From positions 2,048,001 to 2,112,000 of the forward strand of contig CBDCTH010000012.1 in the NCBI GenBank assembly GCA_965222155.1: 64,000 bases of DNA. The letters are read 5' to 3'. Source of the DNA: Gammaproteobacteria bacterium (GTDB lineage: Bacteria > Pseudomonadota > Gammaproteobacteria > Eutrophobiales > Eutrophobiaceae). The notes under the pieces were generated by a model, which saw only the letters and a program-made list of their open reading frames with translations, did not search any database and was not told the origin of the DNA. The position numbers and the translations under genes are program-made. Below are positions 17,548-24,450 of the stretch, piece by piece (within the stretch, counting starts at the first letter, position 1; each line of letters starts with the position of its first letter).

Positions 17548-18042
17548 TTATCCAGCTCCCAGAACAAACCTTGCTCTTTCCCGGCGCAACATTTCGTAGG
17601 GGTTGATGCAGCGAAGATCGAGACCGAGGCAGACATTTGGAATCTTGATCTTCTTTATGGTTTCGGCGGGCACTTCGTGGCTGACGATAGCGCAGCGGTG
17701 CGCCAGGGCGTGGGCGACAAGCCAGTAGTCCGCGACCTGCAAAAAGGTGGCGACGGCAGAGGCATCGTAATCCTGGTTGCTTACCCAAGCGCTGACCCTC
17801 CCAAGAGCAGGGATAACCTTCTCATCAGGCCTCAGAAAGAAGTCATCGCCGCGCGCCTCGGCCCATTTCGCCAGGTCATCATTGCCAGCATGCAACTCGC
17901 CGGCGACCTTCTCGATACTCGCTACATTTCCCGCTTTGTTCTGCCCAACCAGCCAATCCCAGAAGGCGGGACAAAAGTCGAAGCCGTAGTGCAGATTCTT
18001 CGCCTGGATGAAGACGTTCGCATCAAGGAGATACCTGGTCAT
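17548..18042 (-). CDS. DUF4411 family PIN-like protein
   Basis: YLLDANVFIQAKNLHYGFDFCPAFWDWL, ADYWLVAHA, KIKIPNVC. Confidence 0.88.
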   Translation of the reverse strand: MTRYLLDANVFIQAKNLHYGFDFCPAFWDWLVGQNKAGNVASIEKVAGELHAGNDDLAKWAEARGDDFFLRPDEKVIPALGRVSAWVSNQDYDASAVATFLQVADYWLVAHALAHRCAIVSHEVPAETIKKIKIPNVCLGLDLRCINPYEMLRRERARFVLGAG

Positions 18043-19193
18043 CCCGTGACCCCGACTTCGCGCCCAAGATTATTAAATGTCTCGTTCCTGGACACGCCAA
18101 GCATCCGGAAGGCGTCTCGATAGAGTGTCCGGCCTTCAAGCGTGCTGACCACGAGCGATCGAGCGAACCTCCGGCCCACACGCGCTAGGGTCGTGCGGTA
18201 GAAATCGCCGCCTCCAGCACCGCGTTGTGCGAGGGGACGCAGACGTGTGATTTCCTGCGCCCAGACGATATCGAAACTGTCGCGGTCGAGCCAGCCTGTA
18301 TCGAGCAAACGCCGCAGAATGACCAAGGTGCTGACCTTGAAGGACCTTGCCAGCCGTGACAGTGCCATCGGGAGTGTCTCATTTTTGTGCAGTTCGGCTT
18401 GCAATGCGGCAAACGGCACCAGCAACTCCGCCGCCACGGCGTTGCACCAGACCTCCTCAGGCCGAAACCCCGGCGTAGGGGCAGCATTGGCGTTCGACAG
18501 GGCGGACGCACCCAGCCACAGGTGCGCAAGCTCGTGGGCGAGCGTGAACATCTGCGCCGCCTTGGTGTCCGCGCCGTTGATAAAGATCAGCGGTGCAAGA
18601 GGATCGCACAGGGCGAAACCACGAAATTCGGCAGGGTCCAAGCGACGATGGTTGTTACTCATCACAACCCCGCTCACCATGACGAGCACACCAGCTTCAT
18701 CGGCTTGGCGGATAAACAGCCGCAAGGCCTCGGACCATGTCGGACACTCTCGACGGGCAGTCAGATTGAAACCGAGCGTTTCACTCATCCGGACCGCGAC
18801 TGTCTTCGGCGCTGTCTCAACCGTGGCGCTGCCGACGAAGCCGAGCTCTGGCTGCCGCTCGATTCGGACGAAATCTCGATACCAGATCTGCCGTTCCTGA
18901 CAGGCATAGATCGTATCCAGAAGGTTCGGGCTCGGACGCGCCACGGCTTGCCCGGAAAAGGTGCGGAAGTCCGGGATGGGAACAGTCTCATCGGGGGGCT
19001 CCGTCAGGAAAAGATAGCCGACCGGTACATGAACGGCGCGGGCAAATGCCTCCACCTGCTTCAGGGTGGGCTGGGTCTTACCGTCCTCCCACTCCTGCAG
19101 TTTCCTGAACCTGGTCGCAAGATCCTCCTGCGCCAGCCCGCACCGTTCACGCGCCCAGCGGAGGAGTTCAGGAGAGACGGCGACGCGTATCAT
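18039..19193 (-). CDS. XRE-HTH + ImmA/IrrE family metallopeptidase
   Basis: N-terminal HTH (LRWARER...PTLKQ), FRGFAL, FTLAHELAH (HExxH), EVWCNAVAAELL; 4-bp overlap with DUF4411 gene. Confidence 0.92.
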   Translation of the reverse strand: MIRVAVSPELLRWARERCGLAQEDLATRFRKLQEWEDGKTQPTLKQVEAFARAVHVPVGYLFLTEPPDETVPIPDFRTFSGQAVARPSPNLLDTIYACQERQIWYRDFVRIERQPELGFVGSATVETAPKTVAVRMSETLGFNLTARRECPTWSEALRLFIRQADEAGVLVMVSGVVMSNNHRRLDPAEFRGFALCDPLAPLIFINGADTKAAQMFTLAHELAHLWLGASALSNANAAPTPGFRPEEVWCNAVAAELLVPFAALQAELHKNETLPMALSRLARSFKVSTLVILRRLLDTGWLDRDSFDIVWAQEITRLRPLAQRGAGGGDFYRTTLARVGRRFARSLVVSTLEGRTLYRDAFRMLGVSRNETFNNLGREVGVTG

Positions 19194-20460
19194 GTCATGG
19201 CCTCTGCCGCTCGTTCAGCCTCGTCAAGACGGATTTCACCGGATACGAGTTTCGGAAATAGTGTGTCGCGCAGAGTAGTAAAAGTGTGGGATTCATGTAA
19301 ATTAGCGAGGATTCGGCTCATTATTGGCTGAACTACAGCTTCAGATGTACTGGCTAACTTAGCGGGTGGAATTACCGCATCAACCAGTTTGAAAGTTTGT
19401 CGTGTAATCGTGTCAAAAATCGTTCCATGAGTTCGTCTTTGTAACTCATCTACAGCCATCCTGATATTTAAGTAAGTGAAGAAGTCAGGATAACCGTGAG
19501 CACCACGAATGCCGTAACACGTCTGATTCATGGCCATTGGTATCCCGAGACAAGCTAACCTTCCGACGGTGCCCCTTGCTGTGATAACGGTTGTGTATGC
19601 AGGAAGGATTTTCGCCGCGCTGTTCTCAACCCCTTCCTGTGTAATCTTTCTCTCGGTTTCCAGTACGAACACGTCACTTGGTGAGGGAGAATCCTTCGCC
19701 GTGTACCAAGGAGTGTTTCCATCCCAGTATTTTGATACGGATGTACTGGGGGTACCGCCACTGGAAATTTCTATCATATCATCCAACACTCCCACCCCCC
19801 ACCCCTCCGGTATCTCTCCGAATTGGGAGTCGACAAGTCTGCCGGGAAACAAGTCGGCGAGGTGTCGGGGCAGATCAGGGTCTCGGCCTTCCATCTTGGC
19901 ACGGACGGGGCCGAAATCGACGAACCAGTCCTTGAAGATCGCCCGCGCCATGGCCTCCAGCGTCTCGTTCATGCGCCGGTTCAACTCGATCTTGTCGTCC
20001 AGCGTACCGAGGATATGAGCGATGGCGCGTTGTTCGGGGAGTGAAGGGAGTGGGATTTCAACGCGCAGGATATCGTCCTTGCGTAGTCCGAATCTCGTTC
20101 TGTAACTTGACCAAGAGGCACGGCCCGGAATGCGTCCACGTTCTCTCCTGTATCCCGTAAGACCATATAATCCCGCTCGATCTCTCGGTGAAACCGCTCC
20201 GGCAGACGCGCCCAGTCTCTTGCCTCAACCAGAAAGGGGATAGTCGACTCCCGCACAGCTTCCTCGAAATCGACCAGGGAATCTATCGGAATCTTGTTCA
20301 GGCCCAGCCCGCGCAGTACCAGATCGAGATCGCTGCCGTCATGGCTGCACCCGTTCACCCGGCTGCCGTAGGCCCAGACCTCAACCTCGGGCAGATGCTT
20401 CTGCAACAGCGCCTCCAGCAGCCGACGGTGCTTGGGCAGCAGACGCAGCCTGTCAGTCAT
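19190..20460 (-). pseudogene. hsdS: Nucleotidyltransferase-HsdS fusion (type I R-M specificity subunit) with first TRD deleted and frameshift
   Basis: N-terminal MNT domain (YGSR...SDLDL); HsdS frame resumes near 20093 with IPLPSLPEQRAIAHILGTLDDKIELNRRMNETLE, then one TRD (GGTPST) and LRDTLFPKLVSGEIR. Confidence 0.85.
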
Positions 20461-20990
20461 TGTCTGCCGCCTCGATCATGTCGACCAGCACCTTGATGTT
20501 CCCGGCGATGGCGGCGTCCAGCCGCGCGCCTTCGGCGTGCTGCTCGTGCAGTTGCGCGACGAGTCGCTTCATCTTGTCCTCGAACGGTTCGCCGTCATCC
20601 TCCTGCGGCGGCGCGCCGACATAGCGGCCGGGGGTCAGCACATGGCCGTACTTGCGCACATCATCAAGCGGCGCGCTCTGGCAGAAGCCGGGGACGTCAA
20701 CGTATTCGCCTGCATCCTTCTCGCCGCGCCAGTCGGAGACGTTGAAGGGCGGGTTGGCAAGGATGAAATCTGCTTTGAGATGGGGATGGCGGTCGTTGTT
20801 GAAGCTGTCGCCGTGGGCGGTCTGACCCTCGATGCCGCGGATAGCGAGGTTCATCTTCGCCAGCCGCCAAGTCGTGTAGTTGAACTCCTGGCCGTAAATG
20901 CTGATGTCGCGCCTGGCTCTGCCACCATTGCCGTTACCCTCTGCTTTCGTCTTCGCGCCATGCGCTATCTCTCCGGTTGAGTGAGATGCC
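20453..20990 (-). pseudogene. hsdM: Type I R-M methyltransferase remnant (N-terminus lost, internal deletion)
   Basis: [26 protein letters not shown] motif joined directly to C-terminal DVPGFC...LTPGRYVG. Confidence 0.88.
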
Positions 20991-21024
20991 ATATTTCGTG
21001 TCTGTCGGGGGTTATGCACCCGTA

Positions 21025-21077
21025 CAGCAATCCATACTCCATCTTCATCCCGGTCAATGGTCATTGATGAATTTCAT
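21025..21077 (-). pseudogene. HicB-like antitoxin N-terminal fragment
   Basis: MKFI/x/[12 protein letters not shown] with a frameshift, resembling HicB N-termini. Confidence 0.5.
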
Positions 21078-21467
21078 GAATCCTATTATTCATCATGTTC
21101 GCGGAAAGTGTAACCGATAATGCTTCAAGATTACATCAACTGTCCGGGTTCAACAGGACCATCTTATAGTTCCCCCGGTCTGGAGGCTGTTACATGGGGG
21201 GCGGTCAGGCTGGCCCTATGGTCTGTCGATTTGTACTTTTTGGCAGCTTGTTTCAGTTTTAGCGGCTTGCTACGGGTCTGATTTGCGCGTTGGGCGTGGG
21301 TTTGAGGTCGCTGCGAGTCAGTGCGGGCCAAGCCCGTCGACGGCGTTCTGAAACATCAGAACATCCGGTTGAGCACGTAGTTTAATCAGGAACCCAACCA
21401 ACGAAACACAGTACAGGACGCCCACCCATTTTCCTACTGCGCCCCAAGTTAAAGGTGGAGCTTTCTC

Positions 21468-21612
21468 CATACCCGGTGCCGTGGGCACGGAAGAAACGAT
21501 GGATTTTTATGATGTGCCGGTGGTCAAAGCGGGCCAGTGTCTGCGCTTCATTGGGAAATCGCTCCAACCCCCATTCGCAATCGGCTTTGTCCTATTTGGA
21601 TTTGGGGAGCGT
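21468..21612 (-). pseudogene. Ser/Thr protein kinase fragment 2
   Basis: LPKSK*DKADCEWGLERFPNEAQTLARFDHRHIIKIHRFFRAHGTGY (subdomains III-V), internal stop. Confidence 0.75.
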
Positions 21613-21676
21613 ACTGCCTCGAATCCGGCCAAGGAGCCTTGTTGCTCCACTCTTGAATATATGAGGTCGGGATCAA
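21613..21676 (-). pseudogene. AbiEii-like toxin, about 21-codon stub
   Basis: TTG overlapping the AbiEi stop; MIPTSYIQEWSNKAPWPDSRQ resembles AbiEii N-termini, then breaks off. Confidence 0.7.
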
Positions 21677-22497
21677 AAGTCTATCTCCACGGGTTCATTT
21701 ATCACGAGTGCCCACTTGGCGTCTTTTTCGGGTTCATACAACTCGCCAAACGCTTCAGGCATCGGTTTAACAGACGGGTCCAGGGGCTTCATGGATTTAG
21801 CCTTCTTTACGAACGATTCCAGCGCCTTAGCCTGGCTTACATGACCGGTATGTTCCAGCAGGTACCCAAGTCGGCGCACCGTTGAGTTCTCGTATGCCAG
21901 GGCGATTTTCGCAAGCTTGCGCGGGTCGGCGTCAGCGCCGAGGTGTTTTGCAATCTGGGCCACTCCATTGATGCCGGCAGCTTTGTGAAAATAGCGTACG
22001 CAATCCAGAAGAGTCAGTTCCACACCAGCTACTTTGGCGAAGCCCGCCTCGCTTTTTATTTGCGAAAGCCATTCGGACGTATTGGTTCTAACAAAGACCG
22101 ACGAGTCCTGGTAGATGAATTGAAGTCGTTGACGGCCTATATCGAACGGACGAAACTGCCTTGGTGCAATCACTTGAAAGACCATGGCGGCCTGGTGCGA
22201 AGAACCATGGAAAGAAGCTGCACGCAACAAGGATATCCGATAGTCGAGACCTGAATATTTCATCAGGGGGTCGATCCAGCGCACTGGGTCCGGCACCCCA
22301 CTCACCCTATCTTCGGGTCGCAGGATCAGGTAGAAACCACGGCGGGGAGACACCAGCCGATACTTCTTGATCAATCTGGCAGCGGCGGCGATAAATGCCT
22401 CTGCACTCAGACCGAGTGATGCCAATGCTTCTTCCCGAGAGAAGTGGGCCTGGCCACGAGAAAGCAGTTCATCAAGATAATGGTTAAGGGAGGCCAT
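21673..22497 (-). CDS. Type IV TA AbiEi family antitoxin
   Basis: MASLNHYLDELL...RRGFYLI...LLRAASFHGSSHQAAMVFQV...RRLGYLLE; TATAAT 6 nt before ATG. Confidence 0.85.
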   Translation of the reverse strand: MASLNHYLDELLSRGQAHFSREEALASLGLSAEAFIAAAARLIKKYRLVSPRRGFYLILRPEDRVSGVPDPVRWIDPLMKYSGLDYRISLLRAASFHGSSHQAAMVFQVIAPRQFRPFDIGRQRLQFIYQDSSVFVRTNTSEWLSQIKSEAGFAKVAGVELTLLDCVRYFHKAAGINGVAQIAKHLGADADPRKLAKIALAYENSTVRRLGYLLEHTGHVSQAKALESFVKKAKSMKPLDPSVKPMPEAFGELYEPEKDAKWALVINEPVEIDF

Positions 22498-22498
22498 A

Positions 22499-22553
22499 CC
22501 CCGATTATATGCGAAATACGACGGAAATAAAAGATTTTTGCATATAATCGGGG
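22499..22553. promoter_or_regulatory. AbiEi autoregulatory inverted repeat overlapping the -10 box
   Basis: Perfect 14-bp IR ccccgattatatgc (22499-22512) / gcatataatcgggg (22540-22553). Confidence 0.75.
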
Positions 22554-22555
22554 GT

Positions 22556-22717
22556 GTCGTTGGGCAGGTACTCCTTGATGGCCACGGCCTTATCAAGGTG
22601 ATGGTCATAGCCCAGGTAGGTAATCCCGAAGCCGCCGCCCAGGACACGCACCAGTTCATATTCCTGGATGCGACAACCCGGGGGCAGGGCATGGAGATGG
22701 TCGGTTATGAATGACAA
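22556..22717 (-). pseudogene. Ser/Thr protein kinase fragment 1 (N-lobe)
   Basis: HALPPGCRIQEYELVRVLGGGFGITYLG...VAIKEYLPND. Confidence 0.8.
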
Positions 22718-22789
22718 TTAATTCTTATCATGAAGGCGCTAATGATATAGGGAACCATCTATTAATGGTTCCTCGTAGTAGTGAAAACT

Positions 22790-23086
22790 TCAGGCTGAGG
22801 CGGTACGATCAATTCGCTCAACTTCGATCTTGCCGACCCGCTTCAGCGCCTGGGCAAGGTTGTAGGCCGCCTGCATTCGGCACCACGTGGCCGCGCCACC
22901 GCCAAATGCTTTGTCGAGACGTATCGCCATCTCAGGTGAAATCCCCGAACGACCATTCACGACGTCCGATAGCTGCTTACGACTAACCCCAAGTTTGTTT
23001 GCTGCATCTGTCACGTTGAGCCCGAGAGGCTCCAGGCAATCGTAGCGGACAGACAGACCCGGATGAGGTGGATTCTTTATCGACAC
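22790..23086 (-). CDS. higA: HigA family antitoxin
   Basis: [30 protein letters not shown]. Confidence 0.93.
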
Positions 23087-23098
23087 TTTAATATCCTC

Positions 23099-23377
23099 CT
23101 AATGGTAATCGGTCAGTTCTACATCATAGACGTTGACCCCTTCAAAACGGAATACGACACGCCAGTTACCGGATACATCAACCGCCCAGTATCCCGCATA
23201 ACTACCCTTCAAGGGATGTAGCCGAAAACCTGGCAGGTCCATGTCTGCCGGTCTGGCCGCTTCGTCCAAACGTGCGAGAATTCGCTCAACTTTGTCGACG
23301 TATTCAGGCTTTATCCGTCGCCGGTCTCCCTTGTCATAGAGGAGCTTGAGACCCTTGTGGCGAAAACTGATAATCAT
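23099..23377 (-). CDS. higB: HigB (RelE-like) toxin
   Basis: MIISFRHKGL, LHPLKG, VSGNWRVVFRF, C-terminal DYH. Confidence 0.93.
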   Translation of the reverse strand: MIISFRHKGLKLLYDKGDRRRIKPEYVDKVERILARLDEAARPADMDLPGFRLHPLKGSYAGYWAVDVSGNWRVVFRFEGVNVYDVELTDYH

Positions 23378-23475
23378 ATCCCAGTATGCCTTGTCACATC
23401 TCAGATTACAATCCGATATAAGGGGACCCCCCAGGGCAAACGCATACTTTTGAATTCAGATGTTTTTGCCCGATT

Positions 23476-23574
23476 CCGTCATTCTGGCGCAGGCCAGAAT
23501 CCAGTGAATAACCCTTCATTACCCTGAGCATGCGCTGTTGTTTGACTGGATGCTGGCATTCGCCAGCATGACGG
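23476..23574. repeat. REPIN-like paired palindrome (GTCATTC..GAATCCAG family)
   Basis: ccgtcattctggcgcaggccagaatccagt ... actggatgctggcattcgccagcatgacgg; same family as the element inside purL. Confidence 0.8.
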
Positions 23575-23801
23575 GCGGCGTTGTCCGGTTGGTTTCCTGT
23601 CATCTGCAACAGAATCCAAAAGTATGCGGCTTGACTGTTGAAAAGAAGACGGAACAAAACAGCCCCCAAACTCTCTTTCAATCCGGTTAGCGGGAGCTGC
23701 TGCCGGGAGGGCAAGGAACTGTCACTAAAAATCGAATTTGTTGTATATTGGCTGTCCTGTTATACTTGAACACTAGCTGAACTGAAAAGGAGGAAGTCGC
23801 C

Positions 23802-24450
23802 ATGGAAAATAAACTGCATCGAGAACCCGCCACATTCGAAAAAATCCGGGCTACCCTGGACCGGGTATCAGAGAAACAGGAGAAATTCGCCGCGGGGATA
23901 GAGGAGCTCAGGAGGCTCTCCAAGGAGGACAAAGAGCGGATGAAAAAGCTGGAAGAGTTGTTTACGGGTCAATGGGGCAAACTGATGGAAAGCCTGGTGG
24001 AGGGCGACCTGGTGGCCTTGCTACAGGCACGAGAGATCACTGTGGAGTGCACATATCCACGCGTGCGCGGCCAGCGCAATGGCGTCGAATACCTGGATGA
24101 AATCGCGGCGGGTGGGCCGGTGCACATATCCACGCGTGCGCGGCCAGCGCAATGGCGAGCATTACGAATTTGACATCCTGGCCGGGAATGGCGCCGAGCT
24201 GGTGGTGGTGGAAGTAAAGACCACGATGAAGGTCGGGGACGTGAGGTATTTTCTGGCGAAGCTGGATAGATTCACGCAATACCAGCCGCTCTACAAAGAC
24301 AAGCAGATCTATGGCGCGGTGGCGTATTTGAAGGCGGAGGATGCCTCAGACGTGTATGCGCAACGGCGGGGTTTGTACGTCATCCGGGCCACCGGCAGCA
24401 GCGCCAGCATCATCAACAAAGCAGACTTCCGGCCCCGGCTATTCAATTGA
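23802..24450 (+). pseudogene. Coiled-coil + PD-(D/E)XK nuclease-like protein, frameshifted by a 73-bp duplication/insertion
   Basis: WGKLMESLV and EFDIL...VVVEVKT motifs in two frames; removing 73 bp restores a 191-aa ORF; strong AAGGAGG RBS. Confidence 0.82.
24047..24157. repeat. 38-bp direct repeat flanking a 35-bp unique insert
   Basis: gtgcacatatccacgcgtgcgcggccagcgcaatggcg at 24047-24084 and 24120-24157. Confidence 0.92.

Follow-up and report, generated by a model that had tools for sequence, protein, structure and literature searches.

A single repeat-insert-repeat unit in a PD-(D/E)XK-like gene of a gammaproteobacterium: a probable natural case of off-target Cas1-Cas2 integration

In CRISPR adaptation, the repeat is duplicated at each acquisition, as repair of the single-stranded gaps copies the segment that lies between the two attack points (PMC4940900, PMC4872114). 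This repeat-length duplication is described as far longer than the target duplications of transposons (PMC4940900), and its size can be off by 1–3 bp when repeat motifs are altered (PMC4872114). In Escherichia coli over-expressing Cas1-Cas2, integration also takes place off target and gives rise to neo-CRISPR arrays (Nivala et al. 2018, as presented in 10.1101/148544, PMC7054753 and PMC11788318). A type III-A Cas1-Cas2 has been reported to integrate promiscuously in vitro without HU (PMC13769266). Off-target integration of spacers is rarely documented in nature; within the literature searched, the only such evidence is a remark in a preprint on circumstantial evidence in two other species.

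The locus described here lies in a window of 64,000 nucleotides and belongs to a gammaproteobacterial genome of 4.55 Mb that encodes both Cas1 and Cas2. It consists of a single repeat-insert-repeat unit, D1 (24047..24157), within a predicted PD-(D/E)XK gene. We interpret D1, with a probability of roughly 0.65, as the product of off-target integration by Cas1-Cas2, that is, as a natural case of the known laboratory phenomenon.

The repeat-insert-repeat unit and the interrupted gene

D1 comprises, on the forward strand, a 38-nt segment from the coding region of the gene itself (24047..24084), a spacer-sized insert of 35 nt with 63% GC (24085..24119), and a second, exact copy of the 38-nt segment that runs on into the rest of the gene (24120..24157). 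An initial sequence-only reading had reported a 38-bp exact duplication around an unrelated 35-bp insert, and this structure was confirmed. Across the 4.55-Mb genome, the repeat occurs at these two sites alone and the insert at a single site, and the longest other genomic match to the insert is a 17-mer. The insert has no 9-mer in common with the flanks within 2 kb on either side. The bases that flank the two copies of the direct repeat (GTGCAC...ATGGCG) are unequal (a/g before, t/a after) and, therefore, 38 nt is the maximal length of the exact duplication. The real stagger may be 37 or 38 nt, the shorter value in the case of a chance match at one junction base. The event appears to be recent, as judged from the identity of the two copies and the intact frame downstream.

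The duplicated unit begins with GT and contains a TGCGC-N5-GCGCA inverted repeat (24063..24077 in copy 1 and 24136-24150 in copy 2, by sequence inspection), as had been pointed out. The hairpin, however, is no more stable than those of shuffled sequences, with a z-score of +0.68 and 146 of 200 shuffles folding at least as well; in this stability test, the stretch of D2 (see below) was entered one base out of register.

The interrupted gene (23802..24450, forward strand) is seen as two overlapping frames, 23802..24173 and 24079..24450, which are offset by +1 at D1. Taking out the 73 nt in silico restores an open reading frame, as predicted from the sequence: the resulting frame has 576 nt and 191 residues and contains no internal stop, and its residues 1–191 align to residues 1–209 of the intact paralog P0003 with 67% identity. 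All 22 other genomic copies of this family read ...RNGEHYEFDILA... through the D1 site, without the insert. An ortholog of the broken copy was absent from 40 other genomes searched, of which the closest species matches the downstream gene only; the paralogs were, therefore, used as the empty site. Pfam returned weak matches to the Hjc and AHJR-like PD-(D/E)XK families in the C-terminal half of the broken gene, and the N-terminal part of the protein is a coiled coil of variable length. Relatives are numerous (3249 at E <= 1e-10) and nearly all without a name. The term nuclease is, at this level of fold similarity, a tentative prediction from sequence.

Nine of the 22 other family copies form one tandem block (C12:933900-941500), in which the coiled coils differ in length. 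One family copy (C10:80216-80598) is broken by a plain 65-nt tandem duplication together with a 6-nt deletion. The gene that carries D1 is located at the edge of a defence-type stretch, adjoining housekeeping genes. Positions 18039-23377 of the window hold an IrrE-like peptidase, type I restriction S and M fragments (methylase of 203 aa), a nucleotidyltransferase-like ORF, an AbiEi-like protein and a HigB-like toxin. A MITE-like element of ~198 nt (23432-23629), with inverted arms at 23441-23462 and 23607-23628, is found just upstream of the broken gene and has at least seven further copies in the genome with 98–99% identity.

Sequence support for D1 was obtained from Logan contigs of four public sequencing runs in two studies (X2, X3 and X4 from one study, X1 from the other), all of which contain the locus. 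In X2 and X3, the contigs corresponding to 24055-24114 and 24095-24149 bridge both junctions at the depth of the flanks (116 in X2, with flanks of 115/110; 230 in X3, with flanks of 201/207). A contig of X4 runs through the first junction to a point 9 nt inside copy 2. Verification of the junctions with raw reads had been recommended at the outset, and the support from these runs is at the level of contigs. The 38-nt repeat exceeds the 31-mers from which the contigs are built, so that no single contig spans the whole unit, which is the one point in favor of an artefact of assembly or sequencing. Against such an artefact, which we consider extremely improbable, are the bridging of both junctions at full depth in X2 and X3, the coverage of the first junction in X4, and the lack, in these runs, of an empty-site contig joining across the 73 nt. 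Contigs of this kind show presence, and rare empty-site alleles may escape them. D1 is real DNA and no artefact of assembly.

A C>T change at position 24052 accounts for about 45% of the depth in X2 and X3. The contig over 24095-24149 is split in a similar proportion, and its geometry probably places the change at the same base of copy 2 (24125). Both positions are within GTGCAC, and they could reflect either two haplotypes or a miscall linked to this sequence context.

The insert was also compared with the sequence that follows the unit. Without gaps, 15 of its 35 positions agree with the stretch of equal length that follows copy 2 (P = 0.021, relative to random genomic 35-mers), and in frame the peptides VEYLDEIAAGGP (insert) and EHYEFDILAGNG (downstream) share 4 of 12 residues (P = 0.003). 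These values, as well as the plain tandem duplication in the C10 family copy, would agree with an origin of D1 as a 73-nt tandem duplication whose first copy subsequently changed in its second half, through divergence or through replacement, such as by a patch acquired from a distant homolog. Such an origin is, in our assessment, very improbable. The second unit is not homologous to the first throughout (38/38, then 15/35), and 20 mismatches in 35 nt beside none in 38 nt are beyond what point mutation would produce. With gapped local alignment, the similarity is not significant, either to the gene's own region (P = 0.087) or to the best of the 23 family copies, its own gene included (P = 0.129). 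Moreover, no insert-like peptide is present in the 22 paralogs or in 120 retrieved homologs, and a codon-degenerate pattern for the insert peptide found no match in genome or metagenome contigs. The likeness between the insert and the downstream sequence is, thus, probably due to chance, and it is retained as a caveat that hints at homology.

Resident adaptation modules and the geometry of D1

Searches of the genome identified five Cas1 and five Cas2 matches in four loci. None of them is in the window, in agreement with the initial statement that it holds no cas genes. Locus A (C12:560-586 kb) was typed with NCBIfam as a type III super-locus, in which Cmr2 and Csm1 cas10 genes are accompanied by CARF genes and by two cas1/cas2 pairs; its array contains 53 repeats of 37 nt and 52 spacers of 23–54 nt, mostly of 35 (15 spacers), 36 (14) or 37 nt (8). 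Locus B is a complete type I-C system by the same typing, with 28 repeats of 33 nt and spacers of 34 (17), 35 (9) and 37 nt (1). Locus C (C12:3.35-3.36 Mb; NCBIfam) is of type I-G with a Cas4/Cas1 fusion, and has an array of three 37-nt repeats with spacers of 35 and 36 nt. A reading of the 578-aa Cas1 as an RT-Cas1 was dropped, as this protein is the Cas4/Cas1 fusion of type I-G. Locus D (C12:3053700-3057700; NCBIfam) is a type II cas9 (961 aa)-cas1-cas2 operon, with no CRISPR array in the 16 kb examined. The position at which its array would be expected is occupied by a RelE/ParE-type gene and a small neighbouring ORF. The native spacers have a mean GC content of 45–47%, with 5 of 81 reaching 62%, and none of the 81 matches the genome elsewhere.

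The dimensions of D1 correspond to those of the 37-nt arrays. Arrays A and C have a modal period of 72–74 nt and the type I-C array one of 67–68 nt; the D1 unit measures 73 nt. The duplication of 38 nt approximates the 37-nt repeats of arrays A and C, being one base longer, and is unlike the 33-nt type I-C repeat. A single chance match at a junction would convert a 37+36 unit into the 38+35 unit observed. The insert of 35 nt is within the native spacer lengths, which are 35–37 nt in arrays A and C and 34–35 nt in array B. The comparison with the resident cas1/cas2 loci and their repeat and spacer lengths, proposed together with the initial observation, was thus borne out for the 37-nt repeats, their spacers of 35–37 nt and their period of 72–74 nt.

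A resemblance to type I-C repeats had been suggested from the end of the reverse complement of the duplicated unit. The reverse complement does end with GCGTGGATATGTGCAC, but the link to type I-C is not supported. The D1 repeat and the I-C repeat have one 9-mer in common, CGCGTGGAT, which occurs with P = 0.020 in random 38-mers of the genome and does not align in register with the ends of the repeat. On these grounds, and with a repeat of 33 nt and a period of 67–68 against 73 nt, type I-C was rejected as the maker of D1. The targets of D1 and of the two sister events described below do not resemble a native leader-repeat junction or native repeat ends; the best agreement was 14 of 39 positions, and at least 16 are reached at 11% of random sites. 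D2 and D3 do not share even a 7-mer with any native repeat. Assessed as a functional array, D1 has a repeat unlike the native repeats and no leader-like junction. The inserts of the three events have 63–65% GC, above the mean of the native spacers.

No source was found for the D1 insert, so the search of host genome and virome for its origin, which had been proposed together with an inspection of the source for a PAM, was unsuccessful in this case. The exact 35-mer had no match in metagenome, viral or genome contigs, two 24-mers of it had none in viral contigs, and a search that tolerated up to three mismatches found none in 400 further genomes from the class. BLAST searches returned no match among phages and, among plasmids, one match of 21 nt (E = 0.08) that was taken as chance.

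Similar units elsewhere in the genome

A scan for other duplications of 30–40 bp around inserts of 30–40 bp, another of the initial proposals, yielded two further units, D2 and D3. A search for exact repeats with a minimum length of 24 nt and a period of 30–130 gave 174 hits in the whole genome, mostly in the native arrays; a second scan that allowed mismatches gave 43 isolated candidates, and a third, broader scan gave 51 'clean' candidates outside the arrays. Three clean, isolated units with a long exact duplication and an unrelated insert remain: D1 (38+35), D2 (37+34) and D3 (34+31). The flank filter of the third scan dropped D1 owing to the 50% identity between its insert and the 30 nt that come next downstream, a loss that is tied to the likeness retained above as a caveat. 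D2 and D3 are known from the assembly alone.

D2 (C12:910036-910143) is a 37-nt exact duplication with a 34-nt insert, located inside a MITE-like repeated element. In an alignment with seven other copies of the target element, all seven lack these 71 nt. The D2 insert equals C12:2768862-2768893 at 32 of 32 bases, and the match continues after the loss of 1 nt in a C5 run. The match and the lost C indicate a source piece of 35–36 nt, which is within an SDR oxidoreductase gene 1.86 Mb from D2 on the chromosome. Microhomology between the D2 junctions and the flanks of the source amounts to 0 nt and 1 nt. TTC and TTN are the PAMs of types I-C and I-G, and no TTC/TTN motif is found beside the D2 source on either strand.

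D3 (C4:228549-228647) is a 34-nt exact duplication with a 31-nt insert in a type IIG restriction-modification gene of the MmeI family, which it splits into frames of 536 and 516 residues; with the 65 nt taken out, a frame of 923 residues results. The site is empty in all four relatives' loci that span it (five were fetched) and in one paralog within the genome. The D3 insert had no match in viral contigs. The inserts of D2 and D3 match their own flanks at 21–26%, so that the tandem origin considered above for D1 cannot account for these two events. The inserts are not local in origin, as none of the three shares a 9-mer with its 2-kb flanks beyond chance.

A fourth unit, D4 (C12:965582-965683), has a 30-nt exact duplication, a 42-nt insert and a period of 72. 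An Asn/Asp-tRNA synthetase-like gene has its stop-codon region within the duplication and is itself intact. The period is suggestive, but the duplication of 30 nt matches none of the arrays, and relatives vary so much at this intergenic site that no empty site could be defined; D4 is, thus, ambiguous. Short duplications at C4:55142, C12:3431766, C12:1709107 and C10:80306 were rejected, as they are local or tandem in nature.

The three duplications differ in length (38, 37 and 34 nt), so that one ruler cannot account for all three events, and D3 (34+31) matches none of the arrays exactly. These points weigh against integration by Cas1-Cas2, as do the lack of likeness between the targets and native leaders or repeats, the GC content of the inserts, the missing TTC/TTN beside the D2 source, the lack of self-derived sequences among the 81 native spacers, and the negative search for a source of the D1 insert. 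Units of this kind might also arise without any role of Cas proteins, by template switching at a stalled fork (microhomology-mediated), in which the polymerase would copy ~35 nt elsewhere and return 38 nt upstream, with the result that local sequence is doubled around the copied piece. GC-rich sequence can stall forks, and all three targets are GC-rich (57–74%). The template of the D2 insert lies on the same chromosome, the GC content of the inserts is chromosomal rather than spacer-like, and the targets are unlike CRISPR repeats or leaders, all of which would agree with template switching. Such switching, however, usually shows microhomology at the junctions, and the D2 junctions have 0 nt and 1 nt. 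The genome holds no template for the insert of D1 or of D3, and the other local duplications in this genome look different and reuse local sequence. In addition, the three events cluster in size, whereas template switching, which lacks a ruler, would not be expected to produce such clustering. Integration by Cas1-Cas2 is preferred because there are three events with duplications of 34–38 nt and inserts of 31–35 nt, four adaptation modules in the genome, and a clean insert derived from the cell's own DNA; we regard template switching as a rather unlikely alternative.

The footprint of another mobile element, or of another integrase with staggered cuts of 34–38 nt, was considered as well, since the targets are unlike CRISPR repeats and the genome is rich in MITE-like repeats. 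The inserts, however, share neither ends nor sequence with each other, and one of them is plain chromosomal coding DNA. We know of no transposase or casposase that makes duplications as long as 34–38 nt, and this explanation appears improbable. To our knowledge, the Cas1-Cas2 integrase is the only enzyme that joins a fragment of 30–40 bp with a stagger of ~30–40 bp.

Proposed mechanism and comparison with known systems

The proposal of an ectopic acquisition by Cas1-Cas2, made from the sequence before the rest of the genome was consulted, remains the best supported, on the basis of the four adaptation modules, the agreement of the 73-nt unit with the period of the 37-nt arrays, and the two sister events; the type I-C route attached to it is not supported. 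Under this proposal, a resident Cas1-Cas2 would insert a fragment of 35–36 nt into a non-CRISPR target within the PD-(D/E)XK gene, by two strand transfers staggered by one repeat length, 37–38 nt. Gap repair would then copy the target on both sides and leave a single 73-nt repeat-spacer-repeat unit, which would shift the frame and inactivate one of the 23 gene copies. At least two further events in this genome seem to be due to the same process.

For D1, we infer the Cas1-Cas2 agent, the module that acted and a foreign origin of the insert. The events of 37–38 nt point to the adaptation modules of the 37-nt arrays, type III (C12:560-586 kb) or type I-G (C12:3.35-3.36 Mb), as the most likely agents. 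Between these two, the lack of TTC/TTN beside the D2 source, where the suggested inspection for a PAM could be carried out, would favor the Cas4-less type III module.

In a broader reading, for which we see the odds as evenly balanced, CRISPR adaptation, probably by a PAM-blind module linked to type III, repeatedly inserts spacer-sized DNA outside the arrays and acts as an endogenous insertional mutagen. On this same reading, pieces of the cell's own chromosome would have been inserted, at least two genes, one of them for restriction-modification, would have been knocked out, and the units would represent proto-arrays with arbitrary host 'repeats'. If true, such scars would constitute a genome-readable record of the infidelity of adaptation and a natural route to new CRISPR repeats. 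Three clean scars in one genome, of which two inactivate genes and one contains an insert traceable to the cell's own DNA, would testify directly, in a natural setting, to a mutational cost of adaptation. They would also provide concrete target sites and fragment sizes with which integrase errors, and the ruler on non-cognate DNA, could be tested. A scan for isolated duplications of 30–40 nt around unrelated inserts of 30–40 nt is suggested as a means to measure this cost across genomes.

Among known events, one within the same family is the tandem duplication at C10:80216-80598, which is likewise a local, frame-shifting duplication. In that copy, the sequence between the repeats consists of the gene's own next bases, whereas the D1 insert is unrelated. 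The target duplications of transposons and casposons are similar to D1 in that they arise by staggered, double-ended integration and gap repair. They are much shorter, however, ranging from a few bp up to about 15 bp, and the element that they enclose has defined ends; in D1, 38 bp flank 35 bp without terminal repeats. Standalone repeat-spacer-repeat units have the same form as D1, but their repeats are identical or very similar to the CRISPR repeats of the host, whereas D1 has a single 9-mer in common with a native repeat (P = 0.02).

Regular acquisition in arrays A, B and C resembles D1 in two respects: 73 nt is the commonest class of period in arrays A and C, and the insert length is in the native range. 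D1 differs in that the duplicated unit is gene sequence, there is no leader, only a single unit is present, and the insert has 63% GC compared to 45–47%. A further counterpart is the neo-CRISPR of the E. coli type I-E system (Nivala, Shipman and Church 2018), where a spacer-length fragment is likewise enclosed in a duplication of about repeat length, outside an array, in a cell that encodes Cas1-Cas2. In contrast to that system, the present events are found in a natural genome without over-expression, the resident repeats are of 33 and 37 nt rather than 28 nt, and the targets bear no likeness to the native leader or repeat. In D2, moreover, the fragment taken was the cell's own DNA.
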